DNA from: Escherichia phage SKA64
DNA length: 64,000 nt
Sequence record: OM362897.1
Reading direction: 5' to 3' (one strand)
In this document: positions 4,734 to 35,365 of the stretch, in pieces
How positions within the stretch are numbered: position 1 is the first letter of the stretch
Layout: each line of letters starts with the position of its first letter
Notes under the pieces: model-generated
The model's input: the letters and a program-made list of their open reading frames with translations, nothing else
Databases searched by the model: none
Told to the model about the DNA's origin: nothing
Position numbers and translations under genes: made by a program

Positions 4734-4955
4734 TCATTTTTCTACTATCATTTGATACCCTGTTTCAACGTTAGAAAACACTGTTATCCCGTCCTGGCGT
4801 TCACTCATTAACATACAAGGCGCTAACATCCTTTCTACTGCCTTGCACTCGTTGTAAACGGCGGTTATATCTCCTGCTGCCTTGTCTTCTGTAGTAAATG
4901 TCTCATTTACGTAAACTTGACCAGCGACAACGGCGACAATAGCGAAAGTGATCAT
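4734..4955 (-). CDS. hypothetical protein (73 aa, N-terminus MITFA)
   Basis: ORF track; AAGGAAA RBS; first 18 nt identical to start of 5029..5196. Confidence 0.55.
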   Translation of the reverse strand: MITFAIVAVVAGQVYVNETFTTEDKAAGDITAVYNECKAVERMLAPCMLMSERQDGITVFSNVETGYQMIVEK

Positions 4956-7599: not shown

Positions 7600-7634
7600 T
7601 ACGTGGTAAATATTATGCCAGTGGCGGCGATATG

Positions 7635-8192
7635 TCAAAGACTATTTTCAAAGTTTTCTAGTGCGATCCTTTTTTCTTCCTCTGTTGGCTGATAATCAGG
7701 AAAAGCATCAACACACAACAACGGCGGGATCTCTTCGTACTCTTCCTCTTCCGTTGTCTCCTCGTCTTCCTCCTGGGCTATGGCTGCAATTTTGGCTAAT
7801 TTTCTTTCAGCTTGAATCAATTTACCATCAAGTACGTTTTTTGCCATATTGTAAGCGGTCCAGGTTATGCGCTTACTTTCTAATGCTTCCTCAAGCGCCG
7901 CTATCTTGCTGGGGTATTCATCCAGGACACGAAAAGCCGGATCAACTTTGTACAAAGGATTATCTTTCGCGCCGTCGCTCGCATCTTCCGCACTGGATAA
8001 ATCAGCGTTACCATTTGCCAGCCAGCCAGGGCGCACATAACGCGCTTTTACGTTGCCGTTACTACGTGCTAATCTGTTACCTATTTGCTCACCGCTATAT
8101 CCCGTGGATTCATCGATAAGATGATCGGTAATGATGCGCGGATCATCTGCTTCATGTTTTACCCAAGACTGGATCACATATTCGCGGCCCAT
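7635..8192 (-). CDS. hypothetical acidic protein (185 aa)
   Basis: ORF track; start set to ATG at 8190-8192 (AAGGTGG RBS 5 nt upstream); Glu/Asp-rich C-terminal region. Confidence 0.55.
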   Translation of the reverse strand: MGREYVIQSWVKHEADDPRIITDHLIDESTGYSGEQIGNRLARSNGNVKARYVRPGWLANGNADLSSAEDASDGAKDNPLYKVDPAFRVLDEYPSKIAALEEALESKRITWTAYNMAKNVLDGKLIQAERKLAKIAAIAQEEDEETTEEEEYEEIPPLLCVDAFPDYQPTEEEKRIALENFENSL

Positions 8193-8487: not shown

Positions 8488-8527
8488 TTATGTAACATAT
8501 TAACAAATTATTCGTTAATGTCAAGCC

Positions 8528-8842: not shown

Positions 8843-8884
8843 ATGTGATACATCTTATCAGGTTGTGGCTTGTTGTCAAGACTT

Positions 8885-9121: not shown

Positions 9122-9268
9122 TACGTGGTAAATATTATGCCGCCACCTGGCGAACGTCAACCACTTTTTCAATCTTTTTATTTTCTTTTTGCTTGCTATA
9201 TATAAAGGAAAGGGCTATCATCTTTCTACCGCGCCAACCAGGGCGCACAACAAAGAAAGGGCGACACC

Positions 9269-9535
9269 ATGACAAATACTACATTACACCTTATGCACTC
9301 ATTGGGCTGGCAAGGCGGCACGGTGCACCAGGTAGCAAGCGCAACGGGCTTAAAGGTTGAAACCGTTCTCAACCTATCAGATTATAAGGTCGAGGATAGT
9401 TATCAATTACAAAGTTACACGGGCGGTTTTACCTGGGCGCGTGAAGGTGGGAAAGAAAGCAATATACCACATTGGGGAAAAGGTGATATTCATTTTTGGC
9501 TAGGTGTCCTGACCTGGCAAGAAAACAAAAAATAA
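9269..9535 (+). CDS. hypothetical protein (88 aa)
   Basis: ORF track; AAAGGG 8 nt before ATG; isolated plus-strand gene. Confidence 0.45.
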   Translation: MTNTTLHLMHSLGWQGGTVHQVASATGLKVETVLNLSDYKVEDSYQLQSYTGGFTWAREGGKESNIPHWGKGDIHFWLGVLTWQENKK

Positions 9536-9537
9536 TC

Positions 9538-9566
9538 TTGACAAGCCCAGGGATCGGGCTTATACT
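9538..9566 (+). promoter_or_regulatory. consensus sigma70 promoter
   Basis: TTGACA-N17-TATACT; spacer is a GATC-centred palindrome AGCCCAGGGATCGGGCT. Confidence 0.65.
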
Positions 9567-9573
9567 GTTTTAC

Positions 9574-9790
9574 ATACAGAAGAGGAAGCGCCACCCCACG
9601 GCGTAAAGGCGGGGCTAACATACCAGGGGCACTGGTTGGAAGGTTGATCGCCGGTAGGCTGGGCGCTATATATTTGTAAAGAAATGTAAAGATAAAATAA
9701 TCGCTTGCTTTCCTGGGTGGATCTGTTATTCTTATTACATGGCGAGGGGACACGGGAGCGCGAGACAAACACCGCCCCTGCGCGTCATTC
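9574..9790 (+). ncRNA. candidate structured non-coding transcript (GC-rich leader)
   Basis: starts at consensus promoter; GC-rich islands with local hairpins (ACCAG-GGGCA-CTGGT at 9621-9635) in an AT-rich genome; no RBS-led ORF. Confidence 0.3.
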
Positions 9791-9797
9791 TCTAAAT

Positions 9798-9816
9798 GAG
9801 AATGATTATCATTTAC
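9798..9816. promoter_or_regulatory. Fur-box-like palindrome
   Basis: GAGAATGATTATCATTTAC matches 15 of 19 positions of GATAATGATAATCATTATC. Confidence 0.35.
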
Positions 9817-9855
9817 CTTATCAAATAAGAATCAATCTCATTTATAAACCTAAAT

Positions 9856-9874
9856 GCGAATCATTATCATTTGC
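9856..9874. promoter_or_regulatory. Fur-box-like palindrome (second copy)
   Basis: GCGAATCATTATCATTTGC; AAATGC...GCATTT inverted repeat. Confidence 0.3.
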
Positions 9875-9919
9875 ATTTCCATATGAGAACTCTTCTCATT
9901 CCCATCTGCATAAATTTTT

Positions 9920-9980
9920 GTAAACTTTAAATTTTGCTTTTGTACTTTCATTTTTGTAAAAGCAAAAAAACTTTAAATAC
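9920..9980. repeat. AT-rich direct repeat, copy 1
   Basis: about 58 bp, roughly 80% identical to 10058-10118. Confidence 0.55.
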
Positions 9981-10012
9981 TGTGGGCGCGCAAAATTTTT
10001 AAAATTTTCCTT

Positions 10013-10160
10013 GATTTTTGAGTTTTGTTTTGTATCTGACATTTTAAGATAATTTTCCTAAACTTTAAATTTTGGTTTTCAACTTTCACTTTTGTAAATT
10101 CTTAAAAAGTTTAAATAATTTGAGGGATTTTTGAGATAATAGGTAATGGGAATTTGAGAT
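10013..10160. repeat. iteron-like short repeats (GATTTTTGAG x3)
   Basis: GATTTTTGAG at 10013-10022 and 10126-10135, ATTTGAGAT at 10152-10160. Confidence 0.4.
10058..10118. repeat. AT-rich direct repeat, copy 2
   Basis: second copy of AAACTTTAAATTTTG...TTTTGTAAA...TTTAAATA block. Confidence 0.55.
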
Positions 10161-10246
10161 AACCTTTAATCTTATTGGCAGACCTTCAGGAACCCACTCA
10201 GATCGAATCCTAGTGATGCAAACTGAAAAAGACAAGGGTTTGTATA

Positions 10247-10296
10247 GGACAAAATAATAGGCTCTCTACGGTGCTGTAGGAGCCTTATTTCTGTGC
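10247..10296. terminator. bidirectional rho-independent terminator candidate
   Basis: AGGCTCTCTAC...GTAGGAGCCT hairpin (10259-10285) flanked by A-tract and T-tract; sits after minus-strand gene ending at 10341. Confidence 0.5.
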
Positions 10297-10340
10297 TACA
10301 AAGTGACGCCTTTGTTCTAAAAATGAAAAAAGTTAAAATA

Positions 10341-10883
10341 TCACAAATATCGTCTTTGCGGTATTTTGTCTGGGAAAAGTATTTCGATCAGTTTGTTATG
10401 ATATTTACCTAAAAGATTTTGCCCTTTCCAGTTGACCGGATTTAGCACCCCTGGTTCATACATTCCCATTCCAATACCGTAAACCTTATCGTAAGGACTT
10501 GCTTCAACAAACGTTTTGTATTGGTAAAGGTGTAAGTCTGCATACAAATCTGGATTCTGTACATATTTCAAGCATAAACCTCGCATAACAATACGCTCAC
10601 GGTTCTCTTCCCATACATTGTTATCAAAATCCGACACTGCCCTACCCATACGTTTGTAATAAGCCTGGATCTTCTCATCTTTCCGTATCAAACTATGAGT
10701 CAGAATAGCCTGTGCAGTGTTGTGATCATTAAAAAGCAAAGCTTTACGCCACATCATGTATTGTTCGACACAATTAAATGTCTGATTGTAACCTGGTTCG
10801 GTTTCTGTAAAGGGTGCAATATACCAATTACTAAAAACATCTTTATGTGAAAAGAAGAATACATAATCATCAGTTATTCGCAT
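10341..10883 (-). CDS. NADAR-domain protein (YbiA-like, putative ADP-ribose N-glycosidase)
   Basis: motifs FFFSHKDVFSNWY, EQYMMWRKALLF, YDKVYGIGMG resemble NADAR/YbiA family. Confidence 0.65.
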   Translation of the reverse strand: MRITDDYVFFFSHKDVFSNWYIAPFTETEPGYNQTFNCVEQYMMWRKALLFNDHNTAQAILTHSLIRKDEKIQAYYKRMGRAVSDFDNNVWEENRERIVMRGLCLKYVQNPDLYADLHLYQYKTFVEASPYDKVYGIGMGMYEPGVLNPVNWKGQNLLGKYHNKLIEILFPDKIPQRRYL

Positions 10884-11071: not shown

Positions 11072-11437
11072 TTAATCCATCCACCAGTAGCCATAAACTG
11101 CGTCTGCGTCGATGAGTTTGTGTTTGTTGTTCCGCATGTAGTCTAAGATAAGTAGACGTTTATTGTATCTGGAGAGATTATGACCCTCTTTTCCGCCATA
11201 GTCAAAATATTTTGCAAGATCTTTGCACTCAAACAAAATTAGTTCGGGAGTTTCTTCACACTGGTCTGTCTGGTACACTTGACGAATGATCATGTATACA
11301 TCATCGTCTTCCGCTAAATGCTCTACTGGTCCACATCCAGCAGGAACAAATTCATAGTCCCATCTGATCAGATGTTTCTCTACTGCTTCAAAGAAGTCCA
11401 TTCTTTCGTTGCGCATAATTTGAACGTCAACTAACAT
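11072..11437 (-). CDS. hypothetical protein (121 aa)
   Basis: ORF track; CAGGAGGAAAC RBS; start overlaps upstream stop. Confidence 0.6.
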   Translation of the reverse strand: MLVDVQIMRNERMDFFEAVEKHLIRWDYEFVPAGCGPVEHLAEDDDVYMIIRQVYQTDQCEETPELILFECKDLAKYFDYGGKEGHNLSRYNKRLLILDYMRNNKHKLIDADAVYGYWWMD

Positions 11438-12411
11438 GTTTCCTCCTGTAATATTCCACCATAAAGTTTATAAATGTTTTGTATTGATGCCATGCAAGAT
11501 AACTCTACTGTTTCTGTGTAGCCATCTGGCATAGCATATTTGCTCACTGCTTCCGTATCAAGAATACGCTTACAACGACTCTCTGCATCTTTGCACTGCT
11601 TAACAGTAGGGAAGTGCCACACTTGGTGTTGTTTCATAGTTAACACATTATGGCTATTTTGTTCTTTAATACGCCTATCGCTATCTTTAGTAATGCCAAA
11701 TTTCAAGGCACAGAGAACACCTTGTTCATCATAGACATAGTTAATGTAACATTGCTGTTGATTTTTGTTAGCACAATGCGGACAACCTTGACCCAGGTTT
11801 AATAAGCTATTAGCACTCCCTATATGCTCCCCGTGATCCTTACACCCATATTTAAACTTCCCTATTGATGAGGGTTTACTGATCCACTCTATCCAGATAT
11901 ATCCTTTACTTTCTAAACCTTTTCTCACTTTGTAGGTGATTTGTTCGTCTGTATAATGATAATTTTTAGAACAACGGCAAGGGAGACTCCCTCTTTTAAG
12001 GTTATTCCCTTGTGCATAAAACCTGCCATCACAGACGTGAGCTTGCACATATTCATCATGGGAACATTTAGGACATTCAACCATCCAGATAATACTCTTC
12101 CCTTTACGTTTGCCTGTATTGGTGAAGATAGTTCCAGGCTTAAACTTCCCTGTACTTATGAAATTTTGTATGTGCTGATTGTCTGGAATAGCTTTTGCTT
12201 TACTTATTTTATCATACACACAGGTAGGGCAACCAGTACCCCGTTTAAAGTTATAAAAACAGCATGTATTCCATTCATGACCATGACTACAACGTAGGAT
12301 CATCTTCGTATGCGCACCTTTAAACGGCTCTACGATACCTATAATGGTAATCCCCTTAGTTTCCGCTATTGGTTTACATTCTTCCATGTACTGTTCTAAC
12401 GTCTTTGCCAT
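11431..12411 (-). CDS. Zn-ribbon repeat protein with C-terminal GIY-YIG/T5orf172-like domain
   Basis: three CxxC/CxxH pairs; C-terminal YINYVYDEQG...KFGITKDSDRRIKE resembles GIY-YIG-like nuclease folds. Confidence 0.4.
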   Translation of the reverse strand: MAKTLEQYMEECKPIAETKGITIIGIVEPFKGAHTKMILRCSHGHEWNTCCFYNFKRGTGCPTCVYDKISKAKAIPDNQHIQNFISTGKFKPGTIFTNTGKRKGKSIIWMVECPKCSHDEYVQAHVCDGRFYAQGNNLKRGSLPCRCSKNYHYTDEQITYKVRKGLESKGYIWIEWISKPSSIGKFKYGCKDHGEHIGSANSLLNLGQGCPHCANKNQQQCYINYVYDEQGVLCALKFGITKDSDRRIKEQNSHNVLTMKQHQVWHFPTVKQCKDAESRCKRILDTEAVSKYAMPDGYTETVELSCMASIQNIYKLYGGILQEETC

Positions 12412-25679: not shown

Positions 25680-27494
25680 ATGAAAGATTTGTACCAAGAT
25701 GTTTTTTCTTTTTTAGATCGCACTTCAGAAACATACACTAGAGAGAATGCAAACAAACCTTCCCACCTCGTTAACACACATAGGGATCTCTTGGCGGGGA
25801 TTTTAAGCAAACATATGGCAATGACACAGATACTGCCAAAAAACTTGTCAGAATGGCATACAGAAGGTTTTGGACATATTCACGACTTGGATTATCTGCT
25901 CTCTCCTCTTACAAACTGTTGTCTTGTTAATTATCAAGATATGTTAGAAAATGGTTTTAAGATCGGTGCCGCACAAATAGAAAAACCAAAATCTATTGGA
26001 GTAGCTACCACAGTGCTAACTCAAATCATCCAAGCTGTTGCCTCCAGTCAGTATGGAGGTCAGACGTGTGCGCACATTGATAAAGGTCTTAGTCCTTATG
26101 TTGAAGCTAGTTTCCTTAAAAACATGGAGATAACCAAACGTCGCTACGGTTGTTATGCAAGGAAAGAAGCCCTAGAAATGACCGAACAAGATGTATACGA
26201 TGCTATGCAAACTCTCTTGTATCAGGTTAATACTTTAATGAGTGTTAATGGACAATCTCCTTTTATTACAATCAGTATGGGTCTGGATACCTCTGTTTTT
26301 GGCAGAATGATCACAGCTAACTATCTTAAAGTGCATAGTAATGGTCTAGGCAAAGATCATGTAACGCCTGTATTCCCTAAAGTTATTTTCTTTTTACAAG
26401 AAGGTGTTAACATGAAACCTAGTGATCCTAACTATGACCTTAAGCAACAAGCTTTGGCATGTTGTGCTGATCGTATTTATCCAGATTTTATTTCTGTTCC
26501 TTTGAACAAAGAAGTTACGGGATCAGCAGATGGCACTGTTACGAGTATGGGTTGTCGTTCCTTTTTGTCGTACTATGCCACCGAACAAGGAGAAAAATAC
26601 GATGGACGATTCAACCTTGGAGTAGTTTCTATCAACTTACCTCTGATCGCTGCGGAAGCGAGAAGTAAAGGAGAATCTTTCACCGATCTTCTTAATAAAC
26701 ATATGGAGATAGCCTACGATGCTCACATGCTACGTGTAAACCGTATCAGACATACCAAAGCATCTGAAAACCCTATTCTTTTCATGGAAGGGGCTTTAGC
26801 TCGTTTAAATGCCAACGATGAAATTGGTGTTTTGTTTGAAGGTGGTTATGCTTCTATTAGTATTGGTTATGTAGGTCTTGCCGAAGCTTTGGAAATCCTT
26901 TATCCAGAAGAAAAAGATAAAAAGGAACTTGGTAAAAACATTCTGCAACATATGAAAGATGTGTGTGCTGTGTTTAAAGAACGATCTAATTTGGCGTTTA
27001 GTCTCTATGGAACTCCAGCAGAATCTTTGTGCTATAAGTTTGCAACAGCTTTAAATGAAAAATACCCAGGTTTGGTAGAAAGAGACTATCTTACTAACTC
27101 TTTTCATCAACCTGTGTGGTTGGTAACAAACCCTTTTGAAAAATGGGATTATGAAGCAGGTTTTGCACAGATTAGTAATGGTGGTAACATAAGTTATGTC
27201 GAAACACCAAACTTAAAGAATAACTTAGAAGCTTTGGAGACTTTAGTAGACTACGCTTATGAACATATTCACTATTTTGGTATTAATCAGCCCGTGGATC
27301 AATGCTTTAAGTGTGGTTTTCATGGGGAATTTAAGGCAACGGCTAAAGGGTTTGAGTGTCCTGATTGTGGCAACCATGAAGAAGAAACTATTTCTGTAGT
27401 TAGACGTGTGTCAGGGTATCTTTCTGCCCCTAACTCACGCCCTTACAACAAAGGTAAAATGCAGGAAGTTTTGCAAAGGGAGAAACATCTTTGA
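25680..27494 (+). CDS. nrdD: anaerobic (class III) ribonucleoside-triphosphate reductase
   Basis: 604 aa; C-terminal Cys4 ribbon CFKCG...CPDCG and glycyl-radical motif RRVSGYL. Confidence 0.85.
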   Translation: MKDLYQDVFSFLDRTSETYTRENANKPSHLVNTHRDLLAGILSKHMAMTQILPKNLSEWHTEGFGHIHDLDYLLSPLTNCCLVNYQDMLENGFKIGAAQIEKPKSIGVATTVLTQIIQAVASSQYGGQTCAHIDKGLSPYVEASFLKNMEITKRRYGCYARKEALEMTEQDVYDAMQTLLYQVNTLMSVNGQSPFITISMGLDTSVFGRMITANYLKVHSNGLGKDHVTPVFPKVIFFLQEGVNMKPSDPNYDLKQQALACCADRIYPDFISVPLNKEVTGSADGTVTSMGCRSFLSYYATEQGEKYDGRFNLGVVSINLPLIAAEARSKGESFTDLLNKHMEIAYDAHMLRVNRIRHTKASENPILFMEGALARLNANDEIGVLFEGGYASISIGYVGLAEALEILYPEEKDKKELGKNILQHMKDVCAVFKERSNLAFSLYGTPAESLCYKFATALNEKYPGLVERDYLTNSFHQPVWLVTNPFEKWDYEAGFAQISNGGNISYVETPNLKNNLEALETLVDYAYEHIHYFGINQPVDQCFKCGFHGEFKATAKGFECPDCGNHEEETISVVRRVSGYLSAPNSRPYNKGKMQEVLQREKHL

Positions 27495-33665: not shown

Positions 33666-34256
33666 ATGCATACCGAGAGAGACTTGCAACTCTTGTGGTG
33701 GGAAGTGATGCAGGAAATAAAAGAAGATTTTCCTGTTTACTACAACATGTTACGTGAAGCAGGATATAAAGCTTGTGTTAGAAACAAAGTGAATAACTCT
33801 TTCGGTTGGTGCAACTACCGAGATAAAATTGTTGTTGTAAATTGGCACTTGCATAAGAACTCCACAAGAGATATGATCGTGGATACAATGAAGCACGAAA
33901 TTGCTCATGCTATTGATGGTTGTATGGGTAAGTTTAGTAGGCACGGTGCTCATTGGCAAAAACTGGCAGCAGAATTAGGGGCTAATCCTAAAGCCACTTC
34001 CAAAGAGCCGTTGAACCACGAATATAAATATGTTCTTGTTCTGGTAGATAGGTTTGCGACAAGATGTGTTAGAGGTTATAATCGTAAACCTAATCGCATG
34101 TACCCAGGTAAGCAACCTAATATGTGGTTGAAATCAGATAAAGAAGGGACCGAAGGAAAATTATGGTTGTATAAATGGGACGATTGGGTTAAAGTAGCTA
34201 AAGAGTACGGTGTTTCACCATATATAAGAGATGCAGAAGAGGAGAATGAAGAATGA
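33666..34256 (+). CDS. SprT-like zinc metalloprotease domain protein
   Basis: HExxH motif in MKHEIAHAIDG followed by HGAHW. Confidence 0.5.
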   Translation: MHTERDLQLLWWEVMQEIKEDFPVYYNMLREAGYKACVRNKVNNSFGWCNYRDKIVVVNWHLHKNSTRDMIVDTMKHEIAHAIDGCMGKFSRHGAHWQKLAAELGANPKATSKEPLNHEYKYVLVLVDRFATRCVRGYNRKPNRMYPGKQPNMWLKSDKEGTEGKLWLYKWDDWVKVAKEYGVSPYIRDAEEENEE

Positions 34257-35365
34257 CAAGTCCATTTTTAAAAGCAGCTACTGGTGGTCAGAAGAAGCCT
34301 GAAATGAGCGTATTTGCTGCAACAACAGATGCAAGTAAATCTGTATTCGCTCCAAGCGTGTTAGATGCCAGTCCTGTTTATGCACCAGCGGCACCGCAAG
34401 AAGTTCCAGTTTTGCCTTCTATGACCCGACAAGAGATTGAAGAGATTGGGGCAGAGGCAGGAACAACCTTGCGTTCCTTGAATGCCGAGGTGTTAAAACA
34501 TCAACGTAGTAATCAAGGCGATCAGATGAGTGAACGACTCACAGCTTTGATTAAACAGGCAAAACAACTTGATCCAAACTCTATTAAACAAAGCAAGGGT
34601 ATTACTAAACTCATTAAAAAAGTTATGGGTATGAAAGAAGACCTGTTCGGGGAGTTTGATAATGTTAATAACCGTATTGAAGAGTTGGTAAAGAACCTTC
34701 AAATGGATATTCGCAAAGAAGAAGATTCCTTGGTATATCTTGAAAAGCTACATCAAGCTATTGGACAATATGCTGCAAGTTTGAACCGAGATATGCAGCT
34801 TCTAACAGCAACCTATGAAAAAGAAGAACAAGCTTTGGCTGCTCTTCCAGAAGATGCAGTAGAACAGCGACAAGTGATCCGAGATACTTTGGATCTTCTG
34901 GAGATTCGTATTGCAGATTTAAAAGCATTGCGCCTACTGTGTGTCCAAATGGGACCGCGTGTACAAGGTATGCAAAAAGTTTCTGCAAGCTTAATGCGAT
35001 CTGCGCGTAACATAGTAAATAATGTTATTCCTGCTTACTCTGCTAACTTCTCAATGTATATCGAGAGCTTACGTCAAATGAAAGCAGCAGAGACGCAGAA
35101 TAACGTTCTTGATGAATTTAACCTGGCAATTAAACTGGGTAGCGATCTTGCCACACAGAATCAGATCGAAGCAGCAGCACTGGCTAACCGTCAAGTGTTG
35201 GATATTGAAACTCTGCGTCACGATCAGGAAAACTTGGTTAAGATGCTGGAAGAAACTAACCGCATCAATACGGAAGCCCGTGCTGCTCGTGTTGATTATA
35301 TTAATGAAGTTCAATCTCTGGAAGACGGGATGGTAGCTGCTGTGAAACGAGGGCTTGGTAAATGA
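34253..35365 (+). CDS. coiled-coil protein, TelA-like candidate
   Basis: 370 aa, largely helical with heptad-like repeats; assignment is contextual (sits in Ter-type cluster). Confidence 0.3.
   Translation: MTSPFLKAATGGQKKPEMSVFAATTDASKSVFAPSVLDASPVYAPAAPQEVPVLPSMTRQEIEEIGAEAGTTLRSLNAEVLKHQRSNQGDQMSERLTALIKQAKQLDPNSIKQSKGITKLIKKVMGMKEDLFGEFDNVNNRIEELVKNLQMDIRKEEDSLVYLEKLHQAIGQYAASLNRDMQLLTATYEKEEQALAALPEDAVEQRQVIRDTLDLLEIRIADLKALRLLCVQMGPRVQGMQKVSASLMRSARNIVNNVIPAYSANFSMYIESLRQMKAAETQNNVLDEFNLAIKLGSDLATQNQIEAAALANRQVLDIETLRHDQENLVKMLEETNRINTEARAARVDYINEVQSLEDGMVAAVKRGLGK

Follow-up and report, generated by a model that had tools for sequence, protein, structure and literature searches.

A gene-free hub of a phAPEC8-like myovirus with two predicted small structured RNAs, a Fur-type palindrome array and a possible replication origin

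Within 64,000 nt of the Escherichia phage SKA64 genome (record OM362897.1; this whole stretch is referred to as the window), a gene-free stretch of about 800 bp, here termed the hub, carries two promoters, structured RNA segments, an array of palindromes, AT-rich repeats and a two-way terminator. The hub probably encodes two early, host-transcribed small structured RNAs (RNA1 and RNA2) that represent undescribed families. Taken as a whole, we tentatively read it as a conserved, early-transcribed and modular control region that combines these RNAs with a Fur-type site array and a replication origin—a reading that we prefer, yet would still place somewhat short of probable. The window comes from a Phapecoctavirus (a myovirus of the phAPEC8 type, ~150 kb; Stephanstirmvirinae), with positions 9200–10400 being 98–99% identical to iGC_PHA_EC001 and anhysbys and 94% identical to phAPEC8. 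The original prediction for this DNA, made from its letters alone, proposed an origin or a regulatory RNA and named poor conservation in relatives as what would speak against either. Conservation is clear: positions 9569–9842 are 70–77% conserved across two subfamilies, the Vequintavirinae (rV5, Seunavirus, Certrevirus, Mydovirus, and Henunavirus) and the Stephanstirmvirinae, and 9787–9882 also matches T5-like Demerecviridae.

Two predicted promoters lead into the hub, both of the host sigma-70 rather than the T7 type and both defined by −35/−10 hexamers 16–18 bp apart that are conserved despite a variable spacer. The first, P1 (9538–9566, plus strand; TTGACA at 9538–9543, a 17-nt spacer, and TATACT at 9561–9566), is the TTGACA-N17-TATACT promoter already seen in the original prediction; it scores 11/12, the top sigma-70 match between 7000 and 12000, and has a predicted start at ~9573. 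Its hexamers and a spacing of 17–18 bp are kept in 27/27 distinct relatives over 25 different spacers, which, together with the conservation of 9569–9842 in two subfamilies, places the hub features beyond chance. The second promoter, P2 (9705–9732, plus strand; TTGCTT at 9705–9710, a 16-nt spacer, and TATTCT at 9727–9732; predicted start ~9739), reaches 7/12 in the window, under the threshold of the promoter scan. Among 41 distinct upstream regions with 38 distinct spacers, most hold a TTGNNN (−35) and a TATNNT (−10) at a fixed distance to RNA2. P2 had been overlooked by the original prediction, as had two further elements described below, a direct-repeat box at 9676–9690 and four palindromes at 9794–9901.

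RNA1, a small structured RNA of ~88 nt (9573–9660, plus strand), would be driven by P1. A covariance model built from 19 sequences matches the window at 9576–9660 with 91 bits and recovers a single copy per locus in 41 sources; P7_Pc holds two RNA1 units in tandem, with a promoter on each. Over 41 distinct sequences, 90.2% of cells are paired. Both-side changes occur at 8 pairs as compared to 3.9 in shuffles (0/500 shuffles reach this), and the covariation score reaches 0.168, whereas shuffles give 0.061 (again 0/500) and slid controls at most 0.039, values obtained on an alignment that was fitted by the covariance model and hence leans toward structure. With compensatory pairs above both shuffled and slid controls, RNA1 behaves as a structured RNA.

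The individual helices of RNA1 differ in how much they vary. In the hairpin that pairs 9619–9626 with 9632–9638, compensatory changes were found at 6/8 pairs, one of them being AU in 27 sequences and GC in 14, with none broken. Upstream, CGCC (9589–9592) pairs with GGCG (9600–9603), and CCC in the loop of this hairpin (9595–9597) faces GGG (9612–9614) of a downstream GGGG; in the resulting pseudoknot, one pair is CG in 30 sequences and AU in 10, and another shows an AU-to-GC change, suggesting that the pseudoknot is likely real. A further helix joins GGU (9642–9644) and GCC (9650–9652). Apart from the covarying hairpin and the pseudoknot, the two other RNA1 helices are invariant and, for this reason, neither supported nor contradicted. 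The G.U pairs of RNA1 agree with the plus strand.

RNA2, a small RNA of ~75 nt (9739–9812, plus strand) predicted to be driven by P2, matches its own covariance model at 9733–9808 with 85 bits. Its terminal helix (ATGGCG at 9739–9744 with CGUCAU at 9783–9788) is 96% paired in an unfitted MAFFT alignment; one pair occurs as AU (6), GC (5), and GU (4), the next as GU (9) and GC (8). Given that the 17 G.U cells of this helix would all be mismatches on the opposite strand, it fits the plus strand only. The loop GAGACAAACACC (GAGACAAWCACC; 9762–9773) is essentially invariant, and a 3′ hairpin (9784–9792 with 9798–9806; z = −3.9) persists as an inverted repeat despite differing sequence in contigs L030 and L031.

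Several observations caution against taking the RNA structures as firm. The covariation over the whole RNA2 structure is modest, with 17/500 shuffles attaining the observed score; its apical helix has 50% of cells paired in a common register, and the register is not conserved; and RNAalifold, applied to the MAFFT alignment of RNA2, returned no consensus structure. Moreover, a canonical intrinsic terminator is absent from both RNA1 and RNA2. Folding of the single sequence 9573–9815 was non-significant (z = −1.4 and −0.9 on the two strands), so that comparative analysis alone is informative here.

RNA2 recurs as a unit of its own. In Mydovirus-like and uncultured contigs, further RNA2-like units stand alone, under promoters of their own and several kb away from the hub (L054 4977–5052, minus strand; L035 4312–4387; L047 4012–4087), and paired tandem units were found in rV5 and L031. 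Such multi-copy units point to a gene for an RNA product. As for rV5-type phages, they have two RNA2 units and no RNA1, and in one metagenomic contig an insert of ~480 nt with a coding look separates a truncated RNA2 unit from a complete one. Module copy number thus varies, as seen at L011 1397–1480, L015 1273–1348, and L074 1897–2560.

The order of the modules was traced through the neighboring gene, which lies directly upstream of the hub and encodes a function-unassigned protein of 88 amino acids (9269–9535, plus strand; phrog_19316 match). RNA1 followed by RNA2, in this order after the 88-residue gene, is found in Stephanstirmvirinae, Vequintavirinae, and related uncultured contigs. At loci recovered solely via homologs of the 88-residue protein, RNA1 stands just after the gene in 10/10 and RNA2 is present in 8/10; scans of IMG/VR and metagenomes via the same protein gained few new lineages. 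A distant uncultured phage (L047) retains P1, RNA1, the direct-repeat box, P2, an RNA2-like unit, and two long AT-rich repeats. In L070, L072, and L077, RNA1 and P2 are separated by an extra element and by AT-rich sequence in which AAAAATTTTT-type motifs recur, and module order is therefore not fixed. The part between them (~1880–2200) includes a further conserved GC-rich element (GGTGTGTTATTAAACGGCGC...CATAGG.GACACACTAG), which may be a third structured element.

Do these conserved blocks encode protein instead? One could suppose that the GC-rich part codes for small proteins, such as phAPEC8_00257 on the minus strand, or is the functionless remnant of a decaying gene, and hypothetical coding sequences (CDSs) are indeed annotated here in several records. 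However, the annotated CDSs vary by record and many records have none, indels of 1 nt and of variable length fall inside the most conserved blocks, and conservation tracks base-pairing rather than codons, all of which makes a coding or remnant origin very improbable. No conserved open reading frame (ORF) spans 9567–10340, where indels of 1 nt and of other non-triplet lengths set relatives apart, and it is the single-nucleotide and variable indels that mark the RNA1 region as not coding. The hub-equivalent region of every relative fetched is without a consistently annotated gene, and the rV5 genome paper marks it merely as a "non-coding" box (PMC3606486). The CDS phAPEC8_00257 (~9427–9768, minus strand) overlaps the 88-residue gene, RNA1, and P2, and is probably spurious, as suggested by frame-breaking indels in relatives. 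Thus, of the GC-rich structured leader put forward in the original prediction, the lack of a conserved ORF holds, whereas the single leader gives way to two promoter-driven RNA units.

Searches against known families returned nothing for either RNA. An Rfam 15 covariance search of the 64 kb at gathering thresholds had zero matches, and at E values up to 10 over 9400–10400 only chance-level matches appeared, all far under threshold; a tRNA/tmRNA search of the window likewise found none. Of the covariance and Rfam checks envisaged at the outset, then, the former bore out RNA1 and the latter gave no family. A host origin of the RNAs was rejected, with zero matches in 5,426 complete E. coli genomes, and so was a LexA box at the P1 start, where CTGT-N7-ACAG has the wrong spacing and is not conserved. 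We found no paper on these RNAs, or on Fur boxes in these phages. The regulatory small RNA, offered in the original prediction as the alternative to an origin, is accordingly supported in the form of two units, by the strong covariation of RNA1 and by the plus-strand terminal helix of RNA2.

Upstream of P2 lies the box that had been overlooked, a GTAAA-N5-GTAAA direct repeat (GTAAAGAAATGTAAA; 9676–9690, plus strand). It is the sole copy within the 64 kb and occurs at the equivalent position in at least 25 relatives, in whose alignment P1, a near-invariant block, the direct repeat TTGTAAAGAAnTGTAAAGA, P2, and a second conserved block follow one another. We take GTAAA-N5-GTAAA to be the CpxR consensus, which the box fits by sequence. 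It is centered ~57 nt ahead of where RNA2 is predicted to start, which suits an activator role, although the ligand could be CpxR or, equally possible, a phage protein. In L054, the same box and promoter module precedes a protein gene (box at 4737–4751).

Downstream of P2, four 21-bp palindromes with the consensus AAATGAGAATNATTCTCATTT start at 9794, 9823, 9852, and 9881 (together 9794–9901), exactly 29 bp apart. The window contains five matches to TGAKAATNATTMTCA, four of which make up this array, and site 1 (9798–9816) is its only match to the 19-mer Fur consensus at three or fewer mismatches (0.02 expected). A matrix derived from 161 palindromes of all phage loci was used to scan 24 kb of E. 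coli K-12, from entD to cstA: the top six and 8/9 of the best matches fell into the fepA-fes, fepD-entS, and fepB-entC intergenic regions, which make up 3% of this stretch, and the other intergenic regions of the ent/fep stretch scored at most 1.5 bits. Footprinting or gel shifts have established these three regions as the Fur targets of the cluster (PMC2189734). The phasing of 29 bp is also present in PBES02, KpS8, rV5, JohannJBalmer, and the T5-like phage phiR2-01.

On this basis, we lean toward the palindromes being Fur sites. In sequence, the motif cannot be told apart from E. coli Fur boxes (19-bp GATAATGATAATCATTATC; 7-1-7 TGATAATNATTATCA; PMC2189734); site 1 differs from the 19-mer at 3 positions, and the phage matrix retrieves the fepA-fes, fepD-entS, and fepB-entC operators. 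Whereas E. coli Fur sites overlap one another by 6 bp, the phage palindromes are discrete, 29 bp apart, and clear of any promoter. The phage consensus further departs from the E. coli box in favoring G at one half-site position (TGAGAAT), a base also found there in the aerobactin operator. A simple Fur role is disfavored by the location of the sites, which lie downstream of P2 at about +55 to +160 and not over the promoter; placed in this way, they would work as a roadblock or an architectural array and not in the manner of a classical operator.

Beyond the array, the hub turns AT-rich. Positions 9784–10191 form the least stable duplex of the 64 kb, ranking first at windows of 100, 200, and 300 bp (−1.09 to −1.15 vs a mean of −1.29 kcal/mol per bp; ~3.6 standard deviations off the mean). 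Two AT-rich direct repeats, described in the original prediction as 58 bp long, are present as 72-nt copies at 9913–9984 and 10051–10122 that are 82% identical and 138 bp apart. A second repeat pair covers 9992–10022 and 10105–10135. The three GATTTTTGAG-like motifs noted earlier were also recovered, as exact copies at 10013 (10013–10022) and 10126 and as the variant GAATTTGAG at 10152, and two GGGAWTTTGAGATAA repeats lie at 10125–10162 (plus strand). Each lineage examined has 2–3 tandem repeats here, with a period of 63–78 bp and a lineage-specific sequence; the 138-bp spacing of the window is about twice this period, and that of L047 is 143 bp. Such a pattern would be expected of sites that co-evolve with a specific binding protein.

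The hub is closed by a hairpin at 10259–10285 that, in line with the bidirectional terminator originally proposed, folds on both strands (−21.3 and −19.4 kcal/mol; z = −4.5 on each). It is annotated as a terminator in phAPEC8 and also ends the converging NADAR-domain gene. The T7-type polymerase and primase-helicase invoked in the original prediction are likewise encoded in the window, as a family-A DNA polymerase and a Toprim plus DnaB-type primase-helicase; the replication machinery is thus T7-like.

Could the AT-rich block be where replication begins? We consider it possible, if not yet probable, that it is a replication origin activated or primed by transcription from P1 and P2 and gated by palindrome-bound proteins. 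The transcription-primed origin suggested in the original prediction agrees with the layout and with the T7-like replisome. In the proposed sequence of events, P1 would give rise to RNA1, and the GTAAA box together with P2 to RNA2; transcription would head into the four-palindrome array, then into the most easily melted DNA, and finally to the two-way terminator. The AT-rich repeat block would act as a replication origin or helicase-loading zone, which the P1 and P2 transcripts would activate or prime as in the T7 primary origin and in T4 oriF/oriG. Host Fur on the array and a CpxR-like activator at P2 would set how much transcription arrives at the block, and RNA1 and RNA2 would additionally be stable small RNAs with functions of their own.

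Known origins offer partial parallels. In the T7 primary origin, the promoters phi1.1A and phi1.1B stand in tandem ahead of an AT-rich segment, and T4 oriF/oriG combine a promoter and an unwinding element with R-loop priming. The hub shares with them the tandem promoters that lead into an easily melted AT-rich segment and, with T7, the pairing of a family-A polymerase with a gp4-type primase-helicase; it differs in that its promoters are of the host sigma-70 type and that conserved structured RNAs and palindromes lie between them and the AT-rich DNA. In lambda ori, four palindromic iterons for the O protein adjoin an AT-rich region. The hub, too, has four palindromes of ~20 bp in a regular array with AT-rich DNA directly after and transcription nearby, but its palindromes fit host Fur and no known phage initiator, are spaced by 29 bp, and are located outside any initiator gene. 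An iteron-type origin sets repeated sites by an AT-rich unwinding element, and both the four palindromes and the 2–3 tandem repeats stand in this arrangement.

The case for an origin is weakened on several counts. Iteron-type origins come with a cognate initiator gene and, in many members, with DnaA boxes; the hub has no DnaA boxes, and no initiator gene or protein was identified. As for the 88-residue protein, the model has no significant structural relative in the Protein Data Bank (PDB) and no recognizable fold. In rV5, GC skew tracks the direction of transcription only (PMC3606486). RNA2-like units also occur apart from any AT-rich repeats, and the variable module order undermines a strict promoter-then-origin logic.

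These last observations fit readily with a locus for small RNAs and host-factor decoys that is no origin at all. RNA1 and RNA2 would then be early RNAs that act in trans on mRNAs or proteins of the host or the phage, or serve anti-defense; replicated Fur boxes would titrate Fur and thereby de-repress host iron uptake and iron-dependent nucleotide synthesis; and the AT-rich repeats would be part of a long transcript or sites for another protein. In keeping with this, RNA2-like units with their own promoters lie elsewhere with no AT-rich repeats near, rV5 has two RNA2 units and P7_Pc two RNA1 units, lineages differ in module order, and the same palindromes occur in other non-coding regions (the termini of BME3 and KPP-1 and the long terminal repeat of T5-like phages). 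There is also a precedent in phiTE, a related phage that uses a non-coding RNA, pseudo-ToxI, against ToxIN (PMC3475682). What such a decoy locus fails to explain is why 2–3 tandem repeats persist in every lineage just downstream, where the duplex is least stable; in addition, no target or partner of the RNAs was identified. With thousands of copies per cell, Fur is an abundant protein, which renders its titration by a few sites per genome uncertain. We regard the decoy locus, the main rival to an origin, as conceivable, while inclining to doubt it.

The pseudo-ToxI RNA itself resembles RNA1 and RNA2 in being a small, promoter-driven non-coding RNA of an rV5-like virulent phage, but the latter are single structured units instead of 36-nt tandem repeats and have no Rfam family match. 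The hub as the pseudo-ToxI locus was rejected: in CB7, a relative of phiTE, it lies between the homologs of phiTE_078 and phiTE_079, and the escape locus is at 106,714–106,772.

The palindromes also link the hub to T5-like phages, whose injection-stop region, Repeat Region 3, occupies the inner end of the long terminal repeat (Davison, 10.1101/866236). Both regions are large and untranslated. Repeat Region 3 contains arrays of the same AAATGAGAATNATTMTCATTT palindromes in many copies, phased at 29 bp in phiR2-01 and at a multiple thereof, 58 bp, in HildyBeyeler; further right it has TTTGAGATA repeats, and a GGGGAAATTTGAGATA pair at its right end resembles hub positions 10125–10162. Unlike the hub, T5-like phages have DnaA boxes, a LexA-like box, GTGCAAATCCGAC repeats, and a location at the boundary of the long terminal repeat, and they lack RNA1 and RNA2 as judged by the covariance models. 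A near-perfect LexA-type box, TACTGTATAAATATACAGTA, was observed beside DnaA boxes and Fur-type palindromes in phiR2-01 (L017 ~805–835 and 915–945) and HildyBeyeler (L018 ~955–985). From its sequence, Repeat Region 3 looks like a cluster of host-factor sites; the Davison preprint mentions neither Fur nor LexA (10.1101/866236).

By analogy with Repeat Region 3, the hub might itself be a packaging or genome-terminus region, that is, a pac site or the boundary of a terminal repeat. The 29-bp-phased palindromes and TTTGAGATAA repeats are common to both regions, BME3 and KPP-1 carry palindromes within or next to their direct terminal repeats, and some database records (phiWec189, phage R7) start within the hub. 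Yet the terminal repeats mapped with PhageTerm in BME3 (342 bp; PMC12210895) and KPP-1 (514 bp; PMC9862379) share no homology with the hub and are without RNA1 and RNA2, indicating that the hub is not the terminus in these two relatives; the window has no homolog of the BME3 terminus region; and phiTE, which bears a hub, has been reported to be circularly permuted (PMC3475682). A terminus at the hub was rejected for these relatives, and a T5-type boundary, with the inner end of a terminal repeat and paired DnaA boxes, is not what the hub displays. For the phage of the window as well, a terminus here is improbable.

The palindromes of BME3 (a Justusliebigvirus) and KPP-1 (a Mydovirus) belong to a second large non-coding region that is unrelated to the hub. 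Those in or beside the mapped direct terminal repeats are at L061 52–72, 247–267, 1158–1178, and 1216–1236 for BME3 and at L060 1913–2678 for KPP-1, whose terminal repeat also holds a GTAAA-N5-GTAAA box (L060 1544–1558).

Some features at the edges of the hub complete the picture. The palindrome in the P1 spacer, described in the original prediction as centered on GATC, is a hairpin at 9543–9561 (plus strand; AAGCCC-AGGGATC-GGGCTT, −8.8 kcal/mol) with GATC in its loop. It appears in the terminator scan; in relatives its arms covary, and the loop is frequently of the GNRA type (GCAA or GAAA). Nested in the promoter, the hairpin probably terminates the transcript of the 88-residue gene. A leftward early promoter (9132–9160, minus strand) holds a GC-rich hairpin, CGCCAGGTGGCG, at 9140–9153 inside its −35/−10 spacer. 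With P1, at least two promoters contain such a spacer hairpin, which looks like a terminator nested in the promoter of the next unit. Other leftward early promoters on the minus strand (7610–7638, 8852–8879, and 8497–8524) were recorded as promoters only.

To the left of the hub are short early genes in a leftward array plus the single small rightward gene for the 88-residue protein; to its right, the NADAR-domain gene (10341–10883, minus strand) converges on the hub. The 88-residue protein has 21 homologs and zero matches in a Pfam search. Its AlphaFold2 model is all-alpha with five helices (predicted local distance difference test [pLDDT] score of 95), and this confident model without a structural or family match suggests that the protein may represent a new small fold. 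Further genes in the window encode a CapR homology domain protein (11431–12411), an anaerobic ribonucleotide reductase (NrdD; 25680–27494), and a TelA-like protein (34253–35365).

Each part of the hub is of a known kind: phage small RNA, Fur box, iteron with unwinding element, and a terminator nested within a promoter. The RNA families, the phased Fur-type array in common with T5-like phages, and the combination of these parts appear to be undescribed in the searchable literature. A broader, and rather doubtful, proposal is that the palindromes are genuine Fur sites, which several unrelated groups of virulent enterobacterial phages (phAPEC8- and rV5-like myoviruses as well as T5-like siphoviruses) have set at 29-bp phasing within large non-coding regions, so as to recruit host regulators as architectural or gating proteins. 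If true, host regulators would gate origins, terminal repeats, and the T5 injection-stop region, where host-factor sites would cluster (a CpxR-type box here; DnaA and LexA-type boxes in T5-like phages), tying phage DNA transactions to the iron and stress state of the host. The long-unexplained T5 stop signal, whose repeats and palindromes still lack an explanation of function, would gain a candidate protein ligand, and RNA1 and RNA2 would be two new early phage RNA classes within the same circuit. Because the palindromes and their spacing are common to both systems, work on Fur could inform the hub and T5 alike. The phAPEC8- and rV5-like phages (~150 kb) are common candidates for therapy and biocontrol, and their origin, early regulation, and non-coding RNAs are barely characterized. 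Here, what had been a "non-coding" box becomes a set of defined parts: two predicted small RNAs with predicted 5′ ends, an activator-type box, a Fur-type array, and a candidate unwinding/iteron block.

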